Sequence record: OR352941.1
Direction: 5' to 3' (one strand)
Source: Escherichia phage AV111
Length of the DNA stretch: 64,000 nucleotides
Positions 30,475-41,023 of this stretch are shown one piece after another (the first letter of the stretch is position 1; each line of letters begins with the position of its first letter). Made by a program: the position numbers and the translations under genes. The notes beneath the pieces were generated by a model. The model did not search any database and had not been told where the DNA came from. It worked only from the letters and a program-made list of their open reading frames with translations.

Positions 30475-30959
30475 ATATACGCTTTCCAAGTTCCTGTTTT
30501 AAATGTTGAGATTACGCGTTTCGCGCGATTAGGTGTCTGACGATACCATTTAGATTGGGCTAGATTTACTGCCGCTTCATCCCAACGTTTCTGTTGAAGC
30601 ATACGAAGAGAATTAGTAAAACCGGCGACGCCTGATATACCCATTTGGAAGACCATATTGACCAATGCACACCGACGAACCGCATCTAAAGAATCATATA
30701 CCGGTTTAAGTTTAGCATTACCCAAGATTCCGCGAACGGCTTTATCAACGTCTTCATTAAATAGCTTTTCAGCCTCATCAAGGGTAATTGTACCGTTGCA
30801 TTTACGTCCGATCATTCTGTCAAGTTCAGCTTTAGCTACGGCTAAAGACGGATTCTTTGTTACTAAATGGCCAATGCCAATAGTCCAAAAGCCTTCGGTG
30901 TCTTTGTATAAAATCAGTCTAAGACCTTCGTCATTACGAAGCATTTCAAATATATTCAT
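30471..30959 (-). CDS. e: endolysin (T4 lysozyme)
   Basis: [32 protein letters not shown]... near-identical to recalled T4 lysozyme; 162 aa. Confidence 0.95.
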
Positions 30960-30993
30960 AATACCTCCCACGTTTATAGGAGGTATTTATTAC

Positions 30994-31452
30994 TTATAGG
31001 AGTGTAGTGAGCACCTTATATAATGATTTGCCCATTACATATTCCCATTGAGAAGGTTTAATTAAAGCGAATGCATCAAATTCAGGAATCTGTCGTCCGT
31101 CTGGGAATGTATGATAGGAATTACAAACACTGTTTCTGAATTGCTCGTGCTCTACAGGGATGGTATATAGGAACAGATGAATATTCTTATTGTCTGAGTA
31201 ATGATGTTCACCTAGGTCTTTCAGGAAGGCAGGGTCATATTGTGTAAACCCGGTTTCTTCTTCGCATTCACGAATAGCGGCTTCAATAGGAGATTCGCCA
31301 GGTTCGACACGGCCTTTAGGAATATCCCACCGATGAGCTAAAGAACCTTTAGGACGAGAACCAGTTACACGCCCCATGAATAATTCTTTATCTTCGGTAA
31401 GGAAAATAATACCGGCTGATAGTTCTTTCACTTTATTTTTCTTACTCATCAT
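30994..31452 (-). CDS. nudE: Nudix hydrolase
   Basis: 152 aa; Nudix box GRVEPGESPIEAAIRECEEETGF. Confidence 0.8.
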   Translation of the reverse strand: MMSKKNKVKELSAGIIFLTEDKELFMGRVTGSRPKGSLAHRWDIPKGRVEPGESPIEAAIRECEEETGFTQYDPAFLKDLGEHHYSDNKNIHLFLYTIPVEHEQFRNSVCNSYHTFPDGRQIPEFDAFALIKPSQWEYVMGKSLYKVLTTLL

Positions 31453-37832: not shown

Positions 37833-38138
37833 TTATTTTTTCCAACTCAACAACTTGTAGTGCCCTTCATTCGTACGAGGTTTATCCCAAGAAATACTAA
37901 TATATGATTCGCTGTCAATAGAAGTCGCCGGGTTTTTCTCTACCGTAAGACCTTCACTTTCCAGCCACTCAATAGTATTTGCGCATAAATCTGAAGAACA
38001 CCTAATCGGAAACCGGCAAGATTTTTCACCTTTAGCTGCAGCGTTATACATCTTTTCTAAAATACGCTTTTGCACGTTTTTAAAAATAGTTTCAGCAGAT
38101 TCTTCAGATTTTTTATTCAGTTCAGTGTAAAGACTCAT
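37833..38138 (-). CDS. hypothetical protein
   Basis: 101 aa; early promoter 38167-38194. Confidence 0.5.
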   Translation of the reverse strand: MSLYTELNKKSEESAETIFKNVQKRILEKMYNAAAKGEKSCRFPIRCSSDLCANTIEWLESEGLTVEKNPATSIDSESYISISWDKPRTNEGHYKLLSWKK

Positions 38139-38166
38139 AACATTTTCCTCTGTGGTTGATAAGTCT

Positions 38167-38194
38167 ATAGTATCATGTCCTTAGAAGAAGTAAA
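38167..38194 (-). promoter_or_regulatory. early promoter
   Basis: Minus GTTTACT-N16-TACTAT. Confidence 0.5.
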
Positions 38195-38228
38195 CATCTT
38201 TATGAAATATTTTTATGCCCTAGATACC

Positions 38229-38255
38229 AAAAAGCCCCAACCTTTCGGAAGGGGC
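38229..38255 (-). terminator. intrinsic terminator
   Basis: Minus GCCCC-UUCCGAAAGG-UUGGGGC then UUUUU; near-identical to 38763-38790. Confidence 0.55.
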
Positions 38256-38261
38256 ATTCTA

Positions 38262-38525
38262 TTATTTAATTTGTTTAGCAGACCAGATACGGTCTTTAAT
38301 AAGTTTTTGGATATCTTCAACATACTCAAGGCTATGAGCGTGAGGATTATCTTTGAAGCTATGTGCTCGTGCCAGTTTCTGGCCTTCTGTTTTGATTACT
38401 AAAAGCTCTTTAAGAATTGCTTCATACTTAGAAATAATTCCTTTGGCGATATTTTTTTTCTTGAGCTGCTTTAGGGTCCGCTTTTGGCGCAGGTGCTTTA
38501 CCTGTAGCTTTCTGGAACAATTCAC
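38262..38525 (-). CDS. hypothetical basic protein; may be the shifted-frame continuation of 38428-38727
   Basis: 87 aa ORF overlapping the IP-like ORF by 98 nt across a T8 run at 38452-38459. Confidence 0.3.
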   Translation of the reverse strand: MNCSRKLQVKHLRQKRTLKQLKKKNIAKGIISKYEAILKELLVIKTEGQKLARAHSFKDNPHAHSLEYVEDIQKLIKDRIWSAKQIK

Positions 38526-38727
38526 CTGATGCAGCTAGGCTTTTAAAAACTCGGCTAACAGTATTAGCATTAGTAAAACCTTCGGCTTTAAAATCTCTAA
38601 TAAAACGGAAACGTTCTTCATCAGAGGCGTCTTTGTAAGAATATTTACCTGCTTGAATTGCTGCAATCGCAGCGGCTTTTACATCTGAACTAGATTGTTC
38701 AGTCAAAAATTCAGCGTATGATTTCAT
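38428..38727 (-). CDS. internal-protein-like (capsid-targeting leader)
   Basis: 99 aa; N-terminal MKSYAEFLTE; Ala/Lys/Pro-rich C-terminus. Confidence 0.5.
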   Translation of the reverse strand: MKSYAEFLTEQSSSDVKAAAIAAIQAGKYSYKDASDEERFRFIRDFKAEGFTNANTVSRVFKSLAASGELFQKATGKAPAPKADPKAAQEKKYRQRNYF

Positions 38728-38762
38728 GTTGCTTTTCCTAAGTTAATTAACTTATCTATTTA

Positions 38763-38790
38763 TTATTATGCCAAAAAGCCCCGACCTTTC
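38763..38790 (-). terminator. intrinsic terminator downstream of the structured-RNA region
   Basis: Minus AGCCCC-UUCCGAAAGGUC-GGGGCU then UUUUU. Confidence 0.55.
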
Positions 38791-39110
38791 GGAAGGGGCT
38801 AAGCCTTGCGGCAACCTTGTCGGGGTTCCACCTGCTAAGGCAAGTGTTTGTACGAAACGCCGGGATTCGAACCCGGTTATTAAGTAGTTGACGCTACTCA
38901 ATATTTTTAAAAGGCCATATCTCGACCATATCCGAACGTTCCGTCAAAAACGCTACTCGGCTTACGGCAAAGATATTTCCTCGAATCGATAATTCGGTGC
39001 GCCGTTTCTGCTGTGATGTAAGGGGATATTAACGAATCATAAAGATTTATTAAGACCAGTCCTTACTCAGGGAACATCAGTCCGACGACTTACCGGTAGC
39101 GACCCGGCTT
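38791..39110 (-). ncRNA. putative structured stable RNA region with tRNA-like acceptor/T-arm element (38851-38941)
   Basis: No ORF on either strand; perfect T-arm CCGGG-UUCGAAU-CCCGG at 38858-38874 flanked by pairing CGGAACG/CGUUUCG; further hairpins; bounded by tRNA-Arg region upstream and terminator 38763-38790 downstream. Confidence 0.35.
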
Positions 39111-39111
39111 C

Positions 39112-39456
39112 TTATTTTGGCATATCATCAATTTGCTCTCGACGCCGACGCCATAGATTAATCGCTTCATTGGCACATTCTGCGTTTGGTATATGACGGC
39201 AATAATATAATGATTCGCGTTTCTGGAACCGATGTTGTAATGGGATTTCGTTTAAAAGGTCTTTACGGTCAAAGTATTCAAAACTAGTTAACCCGGAACG
39301 GTTTTTAATGAACTTCCAATGTCCAAATTCATTTTGAACATAGATGTAATCGGCATGTTGGTATAACAAATTAATCAATCGGTCTGAAATAACTGTATCA
39401 TGTTCGTTAAAATAAAACGTTAAATCATGAACTACCAGATAAATATTGCCTTTCAT
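39112..39456 (-). CDS. hypothetical protein immediately downstream of tRNA-Arg
   Basis: ATG 39454-39456 with SD GAGGAAA; 114 aa. Confidence 0.45.
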   Translation of the reverse strand: MKGNIYLVVHDLTFYFNEHDTVISDRLINLLYQHADYIYVQNEFGHWKFIKNRSGLTSFEYFDRKDLLNEIPLQHRFQKRESLYYCRHIPNAECANEAINLWRRRREQIDDMPK

Positions 39457-39474
39457 ATTTTCCTCACTTAAAGT

Positions 39475-39550
39475 TGGTGCCTCTAGAAAGATTTGAACTC
39501 TCACCATTAACCTTAGAATGATTATATGCTATCCATTACACTATAGAGGC
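39475..39550 (-). tRNA. tRNA-Arg (anticodon UCU), CCA encoded
   Basis: Hand-folded 76 nt cloverleaf: acceptor GCCUCUA/UAGAGGC, D-stem GUGU/GCAU, anticodon stem UAAUC/GGUUA with loop AUUCUAA, T-arm GAGAG-UUCAAAU-CUUUC. Confidence 0.75.
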
Positions 39551-40201
39551 AATTAAATTATTTACAATATCTTCTTTATAAACTTCAGCATAATGAAGTT
39601 CATATATTTCCCATCCTAATGATTTTATAATATCATGGCGTTCTTTATAATAAGGGGCCAAAATCTTTTTCTTAGGATTGGAGTAATGTTGGTTTCCATT
39701 AACTTCAATAATAATCTTTTTATCTATTAAAGCAATATCCGTGCAATACGCTCGGTTTTTAACCGGTTGGTATTCTTCAATAAATGAAATTCCATTTTCT
39801 ATTAATTTAGATTTCAAAAATTCACAAGGCACAGATTTAAATTTTGTATTTTTCTTCCAAGGATGTTTATCGGGGTTTTCATTCAACCATTTTTTCCGAG
39901 CATTAGATATTTTTATTCTAGCTTCCTCAGAGTGTTCTCTACCTAATGAAGCGGCTGACAATTTTTGTCTAGTCTCTTCCGAAATTACTACAGGAACACC
40001 AGTCTTTTTAGATACAACATACTGGTTTAAATTACCTGAAGCTATACGTGCTTTATTCATTGCTGCAATGGCTGATTTAGAACTTTCTTTATACAATTCC
40101 AATTTAGGGTTGGATTTACACCATCTAGTGTGGTTAGCCATCCATCCTTTAGGTTTATTAGAAATATCAAATTCCATATTACAATGTTTACAAATGCTCA
40201 T
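39536..40201 (-). CDS. homing-endonuclease-like protein: Zn finger + NUMOD3-like repeats + DUF559/Vsr-like PD-(D/E)XK nuclease domain
   Basis: ATG at 40199-40201 (track start is TTG 40207); CKHC...WC; SEETRQKLSAASLG and SEEARIKISNARK; C-terminal IDKKIIIEVNGNQH...ERHDIIKSLGWEI; sits between tRNA genes. Confidence 0.6.
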   Translation of the reverse strand: MSICKHCNMEFDISNKPKGWMANHTRWCKSNPKLELYKESSKSAIAAMNKARIASGNLNQYVVSKKTGVPVVISEETRQKLSAASLGREHSEEARIKISNARKKWLNENPDKHPWKKNTKFKSVPCEFLKSKLIENGISFIEEYQPVKNRAYCTDIALIDKKIIIEVNGNQHYSNPKKKILAPYYKERHDIIKSLGWEIYELHYAEVYKEDIVNNLIASIV

Positions 40202-40275
40202 TACCAATTATCTCCTATAAAATATAGGAGTATTTATTATTTGGATAGAGCACTTAATTTACTTCGTTTAAATTA

Positions 40276-40347
40276 CTGGCGCACTTTGACTCGAACCAAG
40301 ATAAAGGAGTTAACAGCTCCCCGTAATAACCTTTATACGATGCACCA
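40276..40347 (-). tRNA. candidate tRNA-Asn (anticodon GUU), CCA not encoded
   Basis: Hand-folded 72 nt: acceptor UGGUGCA/UGCGCCA (one GU), anticodon stem GGGAG/CUCCU with loop CUGUUAA, T-loop UUCGAGU; one G-A mismatch in T-stem, 3-bp D-stem. Confidence 0.4.
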
Positions 40348-40353
40348 TTTGTT

Positions 40354-40428
40354 TGGTGACCCTGGCTGGTTTCGATCCAGCTACCTATCAGTTATGAGCT
40401 GACAGCTCTCCCATTGAGCTACAGGGCC
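40354..40428 (-). tRNA. tRNA with CAU anticodon (elongator Met or Ile2), CCA encoded
   Basis: Hand-folded 75 nt: acceptor GGCCCUG/CAGGGUC, D-arm GCUC-AAUGGGA-GAGC, anticodon loop CUCAUAA, T-stem GCUGG/CCAGC. Confidence 0.7.
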
Positions 40429-40507
40429 TAAATAACTTTCTATTATGAAAGGCACTTTAGAGCACCTTTGGTAATAGAGGGTATTAATTAATAATAACAC
40501 ATAATTC

Positions 40508-41023
40508 TTAAAGCAAATCAATCATTTTAACAGTTGGCAAAACGATTTCTTCTTCAATATAAGCAAATTCAACACATTCAACTACACGCAAGAAATCATA
40601 ATCATAATATTCAGAAGCATGACCAAGAATATCAATGAGACCTTCTGATACCAAATATCCATTCTCACGGAACAGGTCGAATACACGCGATTCGTCTTCT
40701 TCAGATTTATTACCAAGGTCGACTTCAATATCAAAGACCTTTTTAATGAATTCTGGATAAAGCTGGTCCGAGAACAGTCCTTCAACTAAGTATTCATAGA
40801 TTAAAAGTGAGCAATCACTGAATGGTGTATTACCACAGTAACGTTCAGCTTTAGTGCTGGAATGACGACTCTTAAATTTCTTCAAAAGATATTTAAACTG
40901 TTGGAGCTCATGCTCTTCCACACCAAATAACGTTTTGGTTTTATAGTTGTCGCCGTCATTTTCCCAAGTAGTGACATCAATTACGTAACCCTTAGGAATT
41001 GTACTGCCTAAACAAATATTCAT
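40508..41023 (-). CDS. hypothetical acidic protein
   Basis: 171 aa ORF. Confidence 0.5.
   Translation of the reverse strand: MNICLGSTIPKGYVIDVTTWENDGDNYKTKTLFGVEEHELQQFKYLLKKFKSRHSSTKAERYCGNTPFSDCSLLIYEYLVEGLFSDQLYPEFIKKVFDIEVDLGNKSEEDESRVFDLFRENGYLVSEGLIDILGHASEYYDYDFLRVVECVEFAYIEEEIVLPTVKMIDLL

Follow-up and report, generated by a model that had tools for sequence, protein, structure and literature searches.

A small T-even-type tRNA and stable-RNA unit with a mosaic segment in the RB69-like Escherichia phage AV111

Do the three tRNA-like genes of Escherichia phage AV111 represent a cut-down T4 set, and what could such a set supply to the phage? An initial annotation, made from the sequence alone, raised this question for positions 39475 to 40428 of a stretch of 64,000 nucleotides (OR352941.1). 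That stretch is called the window hereafter; it covers 64 kb of a genome of about 168 kb, and all tRNA counts given here for AV111 hold for it. The annotation described a reduced set differing from that of T4 and suggested codon-usage adaptation or tRNA-targeting host defences as its background. We consider it probable that the locus represents, in an RB69-like Mosigvirus, the tRNA and stable-RNA transcription unit typical of T-even phages, in which two core tRNAs would serve AUA and AGA codons, a tRNA-Asn is an optional member, and gene content changes by mosaic exchange. As an observation the finding stands, and its substance is ordinary: RB69-like phages are known to have this small tRNA cluster. 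In megablast comparisons, 18 kb of the window is 96-97% identical over 95-97% of the query to RB69 and other Mosigvirus members (96% over the 18 kb for RB69), and by this measure AV111 is an RB69-like Mosigvirus. The 3 kb around the tRNA genes finds matches in 844 phage records and is covered to at least 80% in only 5.

The tRNA genes were called with ARAGORN on the whole window and with Rfam family RF00005 at its gathering threshold of 29 bits. Both methods return exactly three genes, at the positions first proposed, and nothing else in the window exceeds the gathering score of any Rfam family; thus neither a rejected GUU candidate nor an additional tRNA was encountered. The spacer of 6 nt between the CAU tRNA and tRNA-Asn (40348-40353) was likewise described accurately. 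The order along the minus strand is tRNA-Ile2(CAU), tRNA-Asn(GUU), an endonuclease gene, tRNA-Arg(UCU), ORF150c, rnaD, rnaC and a terminator, and the features on which the argument depends are the following.

40354..40428, minus strand: tRNA with CAU anticodon, CCA encoded, tRNA-Ile2 class (ARAGORN; Rfam 59.4 bits)
40276..40347, minus strand: tRNA-Asn(GUU), 72 nt, U1-A72, G73, no CCA, optional gene (ARAGORN; Rfam 45.9 bits)
39536..40201, minus strand: homing-endonuclease-like open reading frame (ORF), free-standing, 221 amino acids from the ATG at 40201 (Pfam, PHROG, presence/absence)
39475..39550, minus strand: tRNA-Arg(UCU), CCA encoded, allele B, predicted to read AGA (ARAGORN; Rfam 57.6 bits)
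39479..40352, no strand assigned: mosaic segment of 874 bp with Arg allele B, the endonuclease gene and tRNA-Asn (blastn boundaries)

The locus has the features of a T4-type operon, namely the syntenic position, a common strand, and rnaD and rnaC downstream of tRNA-Arg. T4 indeed has eight tRNAs at the syntenic place, as the initial annotation held, and the window has three. RB69 has been reported to carry 2 tRNAs where T4 carries 8 (Nolan 2006, PMC1524935); the two-tRNA Mosigvirus set is repeated in recent Mosigvirus papers, one of which describes a Mosigvirus with 10 tRNAs. The public relatives Mizar, HY126 and WFL6982 are already annotated with the three tRNAs of the window. Together with the two-tRNA sets of RB69 and ATK47, these relatives show that the "reduced set" is the normal state of the genus, here with one tRNA more. 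The description of a reduced set unlike that of T4 therefore holds insofar as the set is smaller than T4's eight and different in composition, but it is the known RB69-like condition plus an optional tRNA-Asn and not a reduced T4. The three-tRNA cluster is a minority variant, already present and partly annotated in public genomes. It also departs from the RB69-type set, which consists of only adjacent CAU and Arg(UCU) genes with Arg allele A, by the extra tRNA-Asn, the endonuclease gene and Arg allele B. The minus-strand location of all three tRNAs, the U13.U22 apposition of tRNA-Asn, the endonuclease gene, and rnaD and rnaC were absent from the initial annotation. The present analysis extends it by identifying the CAU tRNA as Ile2, by quantifying the match to codon usage and by placing the mosaic boundaries exactly, and it shows that the endonuclease stop codon is fused with tRNA-Arg, that the N-terminal endonuclease module is consistently associated with tRNAs, and that tRNA-Asn bears a private T-stem mutation.

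The CAU tRNA is labelled as a methionine tRNA by ARAGORN and in most GenBank records, and the anticodon itself and the "tRNA-Met" annotations of relatives agree with this label. The acceptor stem, GGCCCUG/CAGGGUC, points elsewhere: it contains C4-G69, C5-G68 and A73, as do K-12 ileX, T4 tRNA-Ile and the RB69 CAU tRNA, and the first two pairs also match T5 Ile2. The elongator genes metT and metU of K-12 have GGCUACG, that is, U4-A69 and A5-U68 instead. The pairs C4-G69 and C5-G68 tell tRNA-Ile2 from tRNA-Met, and they were reportedly identified as determinants for TilS by Ikeuchi et al. in 2005. The gene is not an initiator either, because G1-C72 is paired. Its E. coli blastn matches are exclusively annotated tRNA-Ile genes, the syntenic homolog in T4 is annotated as tRNA-Ile, and the phage is enriched 5.3-fold for AUA and not enriched for AUG. 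All CAU tRNAs of T4-like phages have, moreover, been placed in the lysidine-modified isoleucine class (Nolan 2006, PMC1524935). Judged by these features, the CAU tRNA belongs to the tRNA-Ile2 class, with a predicted lysidine at C34 and reading of AUA, and is not a tRNA-Met; a methionine tRNA, elongator or initiator, is extremely unlikely. A common mislabel is thereby corrected from Met to Ile2. The alleles of this gene cross genus boundaries: the window shares that of ATK47, RB69 has the T4/PSD2001 type, and STP4-a has one nearly identical to E. coli ileX. The mosaic pattern thus extends beyond the Arg gene to the whole cluster.

Codon counts were taken over 18,638 codons in 94 non-overlapping window ORFs and, by an identical procedure, over 50 kb of E. 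coli K-12. Relative to E. coli, this AT-rich phage is most enriched for AGA (8.6 vs 1.5 per 1000, 5.6-fold) and AUA (12.7 vs 2.4 per 1000, 5.3-fold), followed by ACA, UCA, CCU, UCU, AAU (37.5 vs 13.8 per 1000, 2.7-fold), UUA, ACU and GGA. Five of these next-ranked codons are readable by the extra tRNAs of T4: ACA (Thr), UCA (Ser), CCU (Pro), UUA (Leu) and GGA (Gly). A comparison between the strands points in the same direction, as AUA, AGA and AAU are all used more in the plus-strand ORFs, mainly large structural genes at 45.8-64 kb (16.8, 12.3 and 42.2 per 1000), than in the minus-strand genes (10.6, 6.8 and 35.0 per 1000). The idea of codon-usage adaptation thus fits the data well, and the agreement of AGA and AUA with the core tRNAs supports a role in codon supply, as a correlation. 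According to this model, tRNA-Ile2, modified to lysidine by host TilS, and tRNA-Arg(UCU) would supplement scarce host decoders of AUA and AGA. As an optional third member, tRNA-Asn would provide extra capacity for the heavily used codons AAU and AAC, and host enzymes would have to trim its 3' end and add CCA.

The composition of the set is best understood from the tRNA-Arg gene and its surroundings. Allele B of the window is only 58-62% identical to the tRNA-Arg of RB69, ATK47 and STP4-a (allele A) and 70% identical to that of T4, and among E. coli phages it is confined to the 11 records in which the endonuclease gene is also present. Blastn homology to ATK47 ends at 39478 and resumes at 40353, and that to RB69 ends at 39478 and resumes at 40357; between these breaks, the 874-bp segment stands in place of the single tRNA-Arg allele A of RB69 and ATK47, about 76 bp long. 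From these boundaries, the set appears to differ from those of close relatives by mosaic replacement linked to a homing-endonuclease-like gene, and not by gradual loss. The notion that tRNA-Asn and the endonuclease form one indivisible unit was rejected, as each occurs in the company of only part of the segment: STP4-a has tRNA-Asn followed 6 nt on by Arg(A), with no endonuclease, and PSD2001 has CAU, endonuclease and Arg(B), with no tRNA-Asn. The tRNA-Arg(UCU) gene of RB69 itself (locus L009, 3284-3362) contains two extra G in the anticodon-stem region relative to ATK47 and STP4-a, which brings its length to 79 nt and its anticodon to position 37; the copy may be defective, or the 2003 record may contain a sequencing artefact.

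The gene within the replaced segment encodes a protein with an N-terminal zinc-finger-like CKHC...HxRWC module with NUMOD3 and a predicted C-terminal DUF559/Vsr-like PD-(D/E)XK nuclease domain. Its Pfam scores are marginal (DUF559 21.3 bits with a cut-off of 20.6, RAP 23.8 with 24.2, NUMOD3 17.8 with 20.4), and the same three matches recur in four to five of five homologs. The match to PHROG 9084, "homing endonuclease", is weak (1.6e-5). The gene has a GC content of 31% vs 37% for the window, is present in 11 E. coli phage records, and is absent, with sharp boundaries, from the same site in RB69 and ATK47. It does not group with SegB or the GIY-YIG family: BLASTP against T4 SegB gives E = 2.1, and Pfam returns no GIY-YIG match. 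Glycosylase matches in the PDB at E of about 0.3 were rejected as chance.

The endonuclease gene is fused to its neighbour, since its last four codons and stop (GCC TCT ATA GTG TAA) are the first 15 nt of tRNA-Arg (39536-39550). This overlap is kept in a Klebsiella Jiaodavirus (64% amino acid identity; locus L012, 2143-2157) and in an IMG/VR locus whose protein has a different nuclease domain and also ends in ...LASIV (L035, 2134-2148). In Jiaodavirus, Gaprivervirus, Lazarusvirus and Gualtarvirus phages, homologs that are 51-82% identical are located within the tRNA clusters. When IMG/VR was scanned with an alignment of five family members, 38 loci were found, matching mainly in the N-terminal 100 residues (CKHC...HxRWC, NUMOD3), and all 38 have a tRNA or transfer-messenger RNA (tmRNA) gene on the same strand within 1.5 kb. 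At about 17 of the 38, a tRNA-Arg(UCU) ends 14-130 nt upstream of the ORF. The C-terminal domains of the loci that share this module vary: DUF559 was found in one, most are unannotated and PD-(D/E)XK-like by eye (with no Pfam match), and one is HNH-like by eye. Since tRNA clusters make up just a few percent of genomes of this kind, a chance association with tRNAs is unlikely. At three of the IMG/VR loci (L023-L025), a tmRNA gene lies just upstream of the endonuclease relative.

Upstream of the endonuclease gene lies a candidate regulatory element.

40212..40238, minus strand: late-promoter-like AATAAATA (40231-40238), then an 8-bp hairpin CTCCTATA-TTT-TATAGGAG (40212-40230) holding the endonuclease Shine-Dalgarno sequence GGAG (sequence)

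The hairpin fold has z = -3.9, and none of 200 shuffles folds as well. Homologs from four other genera have TATAAATA at the promoter-like position. The lysozyme gene e of the window carries the same AATAAATA and a Shine-Dalgarno hairpin (upstream region at about 30935-30999, minus strand), and at both genes the box is AATAAATA and not TATAAATA. A late promoter followed by a hairpin that sequesters the Shine-Dalgarno sequence is the classical device for late-only translation of T4 gene e and I-TevI, and by analogy with these two genes late transcripts may be the only ones from which the endonuclease is translated. The ORF would be cut off from its stop codon when RNase P processes tRNA-Arg. By analogy with SegB, the enzyme would cleave the tRNA clusters of co-infecting relatives that lack the endonuclease; repair from the carrier genome would copy in the endonuclease together with flanking tRNA genes, and the carrier itself would be shielded from cleavage by its divergent, linked tRNA-Arg allele.

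The tRNA-Asn gene had initially been described as a weaker candidate, with one T-stem mismatch and no encoded CCA. The two details are right, the mismatch being G52.A62; the weakness does not extend to the family, whose covariation is strong, as only this copy is mutated. The sequence UGGUGCA...CUGUUAA...UGCGCCA-G has a GUU anticodon, G73 and, as in asnT, U1-A72. A GUU anticodon and G73 are AsnRS identity elements in E. coli, and aminoacylation with asparagine is predicted. Covariation was assessed in seven distinct tRNA-Asn homologs (from T4-like phages of E. coli, Salmonella, Providencia and Morganella, a jumbo phage, a Klebsiella phage and Sf6). In the cloverleaf, 94.6% of cells are paired, vs 37-45% in slid-partner controls; both sides change in 10 of 21 pairs, and none of 500 shuffles reaches the covariation score. 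On this evidence the tRNA-Asn family is a genuine, well-constrained tRNA. An apposition U13.U22 in the D stem, present in 6 of the 7 homologs, is a family trait. A full-length gene occurs in about 23 phage records, vs the 844 that match the region. When the gene is compared by blastn with E. coli genomes, it matches only a prophage-type tRNA-Asn, found in 369 of 5426 genomes, and the chromosomal asn genes are not matched.

The copy in the window differs from this family at one position.

40287, minus strand: private tRNA-Asn substitution at position 62, A where every relative has C (alignment with Mizar, F2 and STP4-a)

The change of C62 to A turns G52-C62 into G52.A62 and the T-loop motif GGTTCGAGTCC into GGTTCGAGTCA. 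G52.A62 is the sole unpaired cell in the T-stem helix among the seven homologs, and the pair is otherwise invariant. All near-identical database copies are one base away from the window copy, and no record is at least 99% identical. In the minimum-energy fold, A62 causes loss of the T arm, and the energy changes from -23.2 to -20.1 kcal/mol (3.1 less stable); single-sequence minimum-energy folding misses the D and anticodon arms of this tRNA and served solely for comparing the T arm of the mutated and unmutated forms. The substitution may be genuine or may stem from a sequencing error. When IMG/VR was scanned for exact matches to the 3' half of the gene, both the window variant and the consensus variant gave 0, and since even the consensus variant was missed, these scans are uninformative on the circulation of the window variant. 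A rearranged copy is seen in AV109 (locus L007, 2501-2572, corresponding to window position 40288 joined to 38873), where a deletion has taken out the endonuclease, tRNA-Arg, ORF150c and rnaD as well as part of rnaC, so that the 5' two-thirds of tRNA-Asn, at the T loop, is joined to the T-arm-like part of rnaC; the resulting chimera bears the GenBank label tRNA-Asn and is not called by ARAGORN.

This private change could mean that tRNA-Asn is a dispensable hitch-hiker of recombination in the cluster, now being lost, with the T-stem mismatch as its first disabling mutation. Such a view would account for a change that is confined to the window among database copies, removes a family-invariant G-C pair and destabilises the T arm. 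It would also fit the absence of the gene from most relatives, the remnant in AV109, which is truncated at the T loop and joined to rnaC, and the fact that the gene is left uncalled in several annotations (F2, PTE-Eco05, ZQ3, STP4-a). The score of 45.9 bits, however, is well over the tRNA threshold, the remaining sequence is identical to copies across genera, which argues for recent function, and a sequencing error could explain the change. Many tRNAs also tolerate a single 52-62 mismatch. We regard decay as unlikely, although it is the strongest of the alternatives weighed here.

The position of the substitution raises a further explanation, that C62-to-A is an escape from SegB-type endonucleases of co-infecting T-even phages, bought at the cost of a weaker T stem. 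The preferred site of SegB is the 3' part of the tRNA-Asn gene in T2L, RB1 and RB3, with the essential core GGTTCRANTCC followed by CCAR (PMC2330249). The site mapped on T2 is GGTTCGAATCCTATCACGTCCGCCAAA, relatives of AV111 have GGTTCGAGTCC...GCCAG, and in the window GGTTCGAGTCA alters the last base of the core. Set against this is that a single mutation in a single genome is concerned, and the chance that a random change in the 72 positions hits the 11-nt core is 15%. The core is invariant among SegB sites at only 6 of its 11 positions (PMC2330249), the Asn allele of the window is of another lineage than the tested T2L allele, and here too the base may be a sequencing error. Escape from cleavage is highly improbable as the cause of the change.

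The suggestion of tRNA-targeting host defences was followed up for all three tRNAs, and a literature foothold was found for Asn(GUU) only and none for the other two. Asn(GUU) is a secondary target of the PARIS nuclease AriB, which cuts between C40 and C41 in U36-A-A-U39-C40-C41 (PMC12409363). In the window tRNA the sequence is U36-A-A-C39-U40-C41, vs U39-C40-C41 in K-12 asnT, which is a substitution at the recognition or cleavage site. Position 39 of tRNA-Asn is distributed as follows.

Position 39 U: E. coli K-12 asnT
Position 39 C: the window, Sf6, KP13-16 and the jumbo phage
Position 39 G: T5 and T2
Position 39 U: Providencia, Morganella and Acinetobacter phages

On these grounds tRNA-Asn(GUU) might be kept to replace host tRNA-Asn destroyed by anticodon-arm nucleases, notably PARIS AriB, and not for codon supply. 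A U39-to-A change in tRNA-Lys abolishes AriB cleavage, and T5 tRNA-Asn contributes to rescue (PMC12409363). The exchange of U39-C40 in asnT for C39-U40 in the window and the lack of U39 in every coliphage or enterobacterial-phage tRNA-Asn examined are suggestive in the same sense. However, the window contains neither tRNA-Lys nor tRNA-Thr, the main AriB targets, and the T5 tRNA-Lys is required to bypass PARIS, as T4 needs tRNA-Lys for rescue (PMC12409363); as the phage lacks Lys and Thr tRNAs, Asn alone should not rescue. Restoring the cleavage-site sequence in T5 tRNA-Lys does not restore cleavage, which makes position 39 an insufficient predictor (PMC12409363). A change of the 31-39 pair is, furthermore, a common neutral substitution, the tRNA sample is small and not phylogenetically controlled, and the window copy carries a destabilising mutation. 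A defence role of tRNA-Asn is thus possible, and as the reason for its retention we find it distinctly doubtful. Sf6 (locus L020, 94-249; also in 369 of 5426 E. coli genomes) carries the two AriB targets other than tRNA-Lys, its tRNA-Asn having C39, and the AriB paper makes no mention of Sf6, P22 or lambdoid phages (PMC12409363). Amplification of tRNA genes by SegB has been found to serve the evasion of Septu, and SegB is enriched in the neighbourhood of tRNAs (PMC13096335). Phage tRNAs have also been shown to counter tRNA-cleaving defences, and in view of both findings tRNA cassettes are plausible vehicles for spreading counter-defence tRNAs.

These strands could be joined into one more ambitious proposal: a mobile Asn-endonuclease-Arg cassette with an undescribed, tRNA-cluster-specific endonuclease family (CKHC/NUMOD3 with at least three C-terminal domains, often ending in tRNA-Arg(UCU)), which would spread a C39 tRNA-Asn as counter-defence and in which C62-to-A would be a SegB-type escape. 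As a whole, this combination is improbable. The cassette and the endonuclease family are undescribed in the literature as far as could be found, and the core set is already known.

We therefore return to a T-even-type unit with core tRNAs for AUA and AGA, an optional tRNA-Asn and mosaic exchange, and several observations weigh against it. With regard to tRNA-Asn, most Mosigviruses do not have the gene, the copy in the window has a broken T-stem pair, so that not all four stems are intact, and the need for an extra tRNA-Asn is less obvious than that for AUA and AGA decoders because K-12 has at least one chromosomal tRNA-Asn(GUU) gene (asnT). With regard to codon supply, the codon correlation is weaker in T4-like phages other than T4 (Nolan 2006, PMC1524935). 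With regard to the exchange, tRNA-Asn and the endonuclease are separable, and the 874-bp difference may consequently reflect more than one event. The call of the nuclease domain depends on scores right at threshold, PDB sequence searches with the endonuclease and with the five-member profile gave no significant relative, and the tRNA association is a raw count of 38 of 38 loci. Finally, the expression and function of all these genes are predictions from sequence.

Downstream of tRNA-Arg, the unit continues with a small reading frame and two stable RNAs.

39112..39456, minus strand: ORF of 114 amino acids, homolog of RB69ORF150c, between tRNA-Arg and rnaD (phrog_3355 at 3.5e-50; annotated in RB69, ATK47 and Mizar)
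38996..39115, minus strand: homolog of rnaD, the species 2 stable RNA (82.6% identical to T4 rnaD)
38851..38989, minus strand: homolog of rnaC, the species 1 stable RNA (99.3% identical to T4 rnaC over 139 nt; annotated rnaC in ATK47)
38779..38794, minus strand: terminator-like GC-rich hairpin and T run that closes the tRNA and stable-RNA unit (terminator scan; conserved in T4 and RB69)

In T2, an ORF is annotated at the relative position of ORF150c, the comparison being one of position only. The central hairpin of rnaD shows compensatory changes relative to T4, and rnaC has a tRNA-like T arm (CCGGG-UUCGAAU-CCCGG). Both RNAs belong to the same unit as the tRNAs. The identity of rnaC to T4 stands out, at 99.3%, while the flanking genes are only about 80-93% identical. 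An Rfam scan of 38000-41000 at a permissive E-value assigned no family to rnaC or rnaD and found no further RNA family; a plus-strand match to "Plastid-ycf2" was discarded as just the antisense of tRNA-Arg. A sigma-70 promoter scan gave fewer matches than shuffled sequences, and no promoter is claimed; nor is one claimed for a MotA-box-like ATTTGCTTTA at about 40510-40520, which was noticed by eye only.

Among known systems, T5 provides two points of reference. In its PARIS counter-defence (PMC11464382, PMC12409363), T5 resembles the window in having a phage tRNA-Asn(GUU) that lacks U39 of the AriB site. It differs in that T5 carries the full Lys/Thr/Asn target set and its rescue has been shown by experiment, whereas the window carries Asn only, with a counter-defence role that is hypothetical. 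The T5 genes hegC and hegD are, like the window gene, free-standing endonuclease genes inside a tRNA region, each running at its 3' end into a tRNA gene of the same strand; they encode an HNH nuclease domain, and the likeness is one of arrangement, with no homology claimed.

The closest counterpart is the locus of RB69 and other Mosigvirus members (PMC1524935; AY303349, KT184309), which shares with the window the backbone, ORF151c upstream, ORF150c and rnaD/rnaC downstream, and a small set centred on Ile2(CAU) and Arg(UCU); the CAU tRNA of the window is identical to that of ATK47. Unlike the window, RB69 and ATK47 have the CAU and Arg genes 3-6 nt apart, no Asn, no endonuclease and Arg allele A, and the CAU tRNA of RB69 is the T4-type allele. 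T2L, RB1 and RB3 (Brok-Volchanskaya et al. 2008, PMC2330249; T2 AP018813) are similar in a different respect, as their tRNA-Asn lies directly upstream of tRNA-Arg, followed by an ORF at the ORF150c position (the order in T2 being CAU, Tyr, Asn, Arg, ORF). Relatives in this group likewise differ in their tRNA sets, and there the differences were shown to be driven by a tRNA-targeting homing endonuclease. T2 differs from the window in its Asn and Arg alleles, in having no endonuclease in the interval and in its nine tRNAs. From the T2 order and the SegB work, both a tRNA-Asn beside tRNA-Arg and endonuclease-driven differences between sets are established for T-even phages.

The T4 operon (NC_000866, 70.9-72.5 kb) lies, as in the window, between the e.x genes and ipI on the same strand, with the order Ile(CAU), homing endonuclease, Arg(UCU), rnaD, rnaC. 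It has six more tRNAs (Gln, Leu, Gly, Pro, Ser, Thr), no Asn and no ORF between Arg and rnaD, and its endonuclease is SegB, a GIY-YIG enzyme with no detectable similarity to that of the window. SegB is a proven homing endonuclease that recognises the T-loop motif, drags tRNA genes along in crosses and replaces about 1250 bp of the T2L tRNA region (PMC2330249). Homing has thus been demonstrated for SegB, and for the window endonuclease we infer it. As segB of T4 and the window ORF both lie between Ile(CAU) and Arg, two unrelated endonuclease genes share one interval. This second, SegB-unrelated family in the same Ile/Asn-to-Arg interval would show how tRNA content shifts between near-identical phages.

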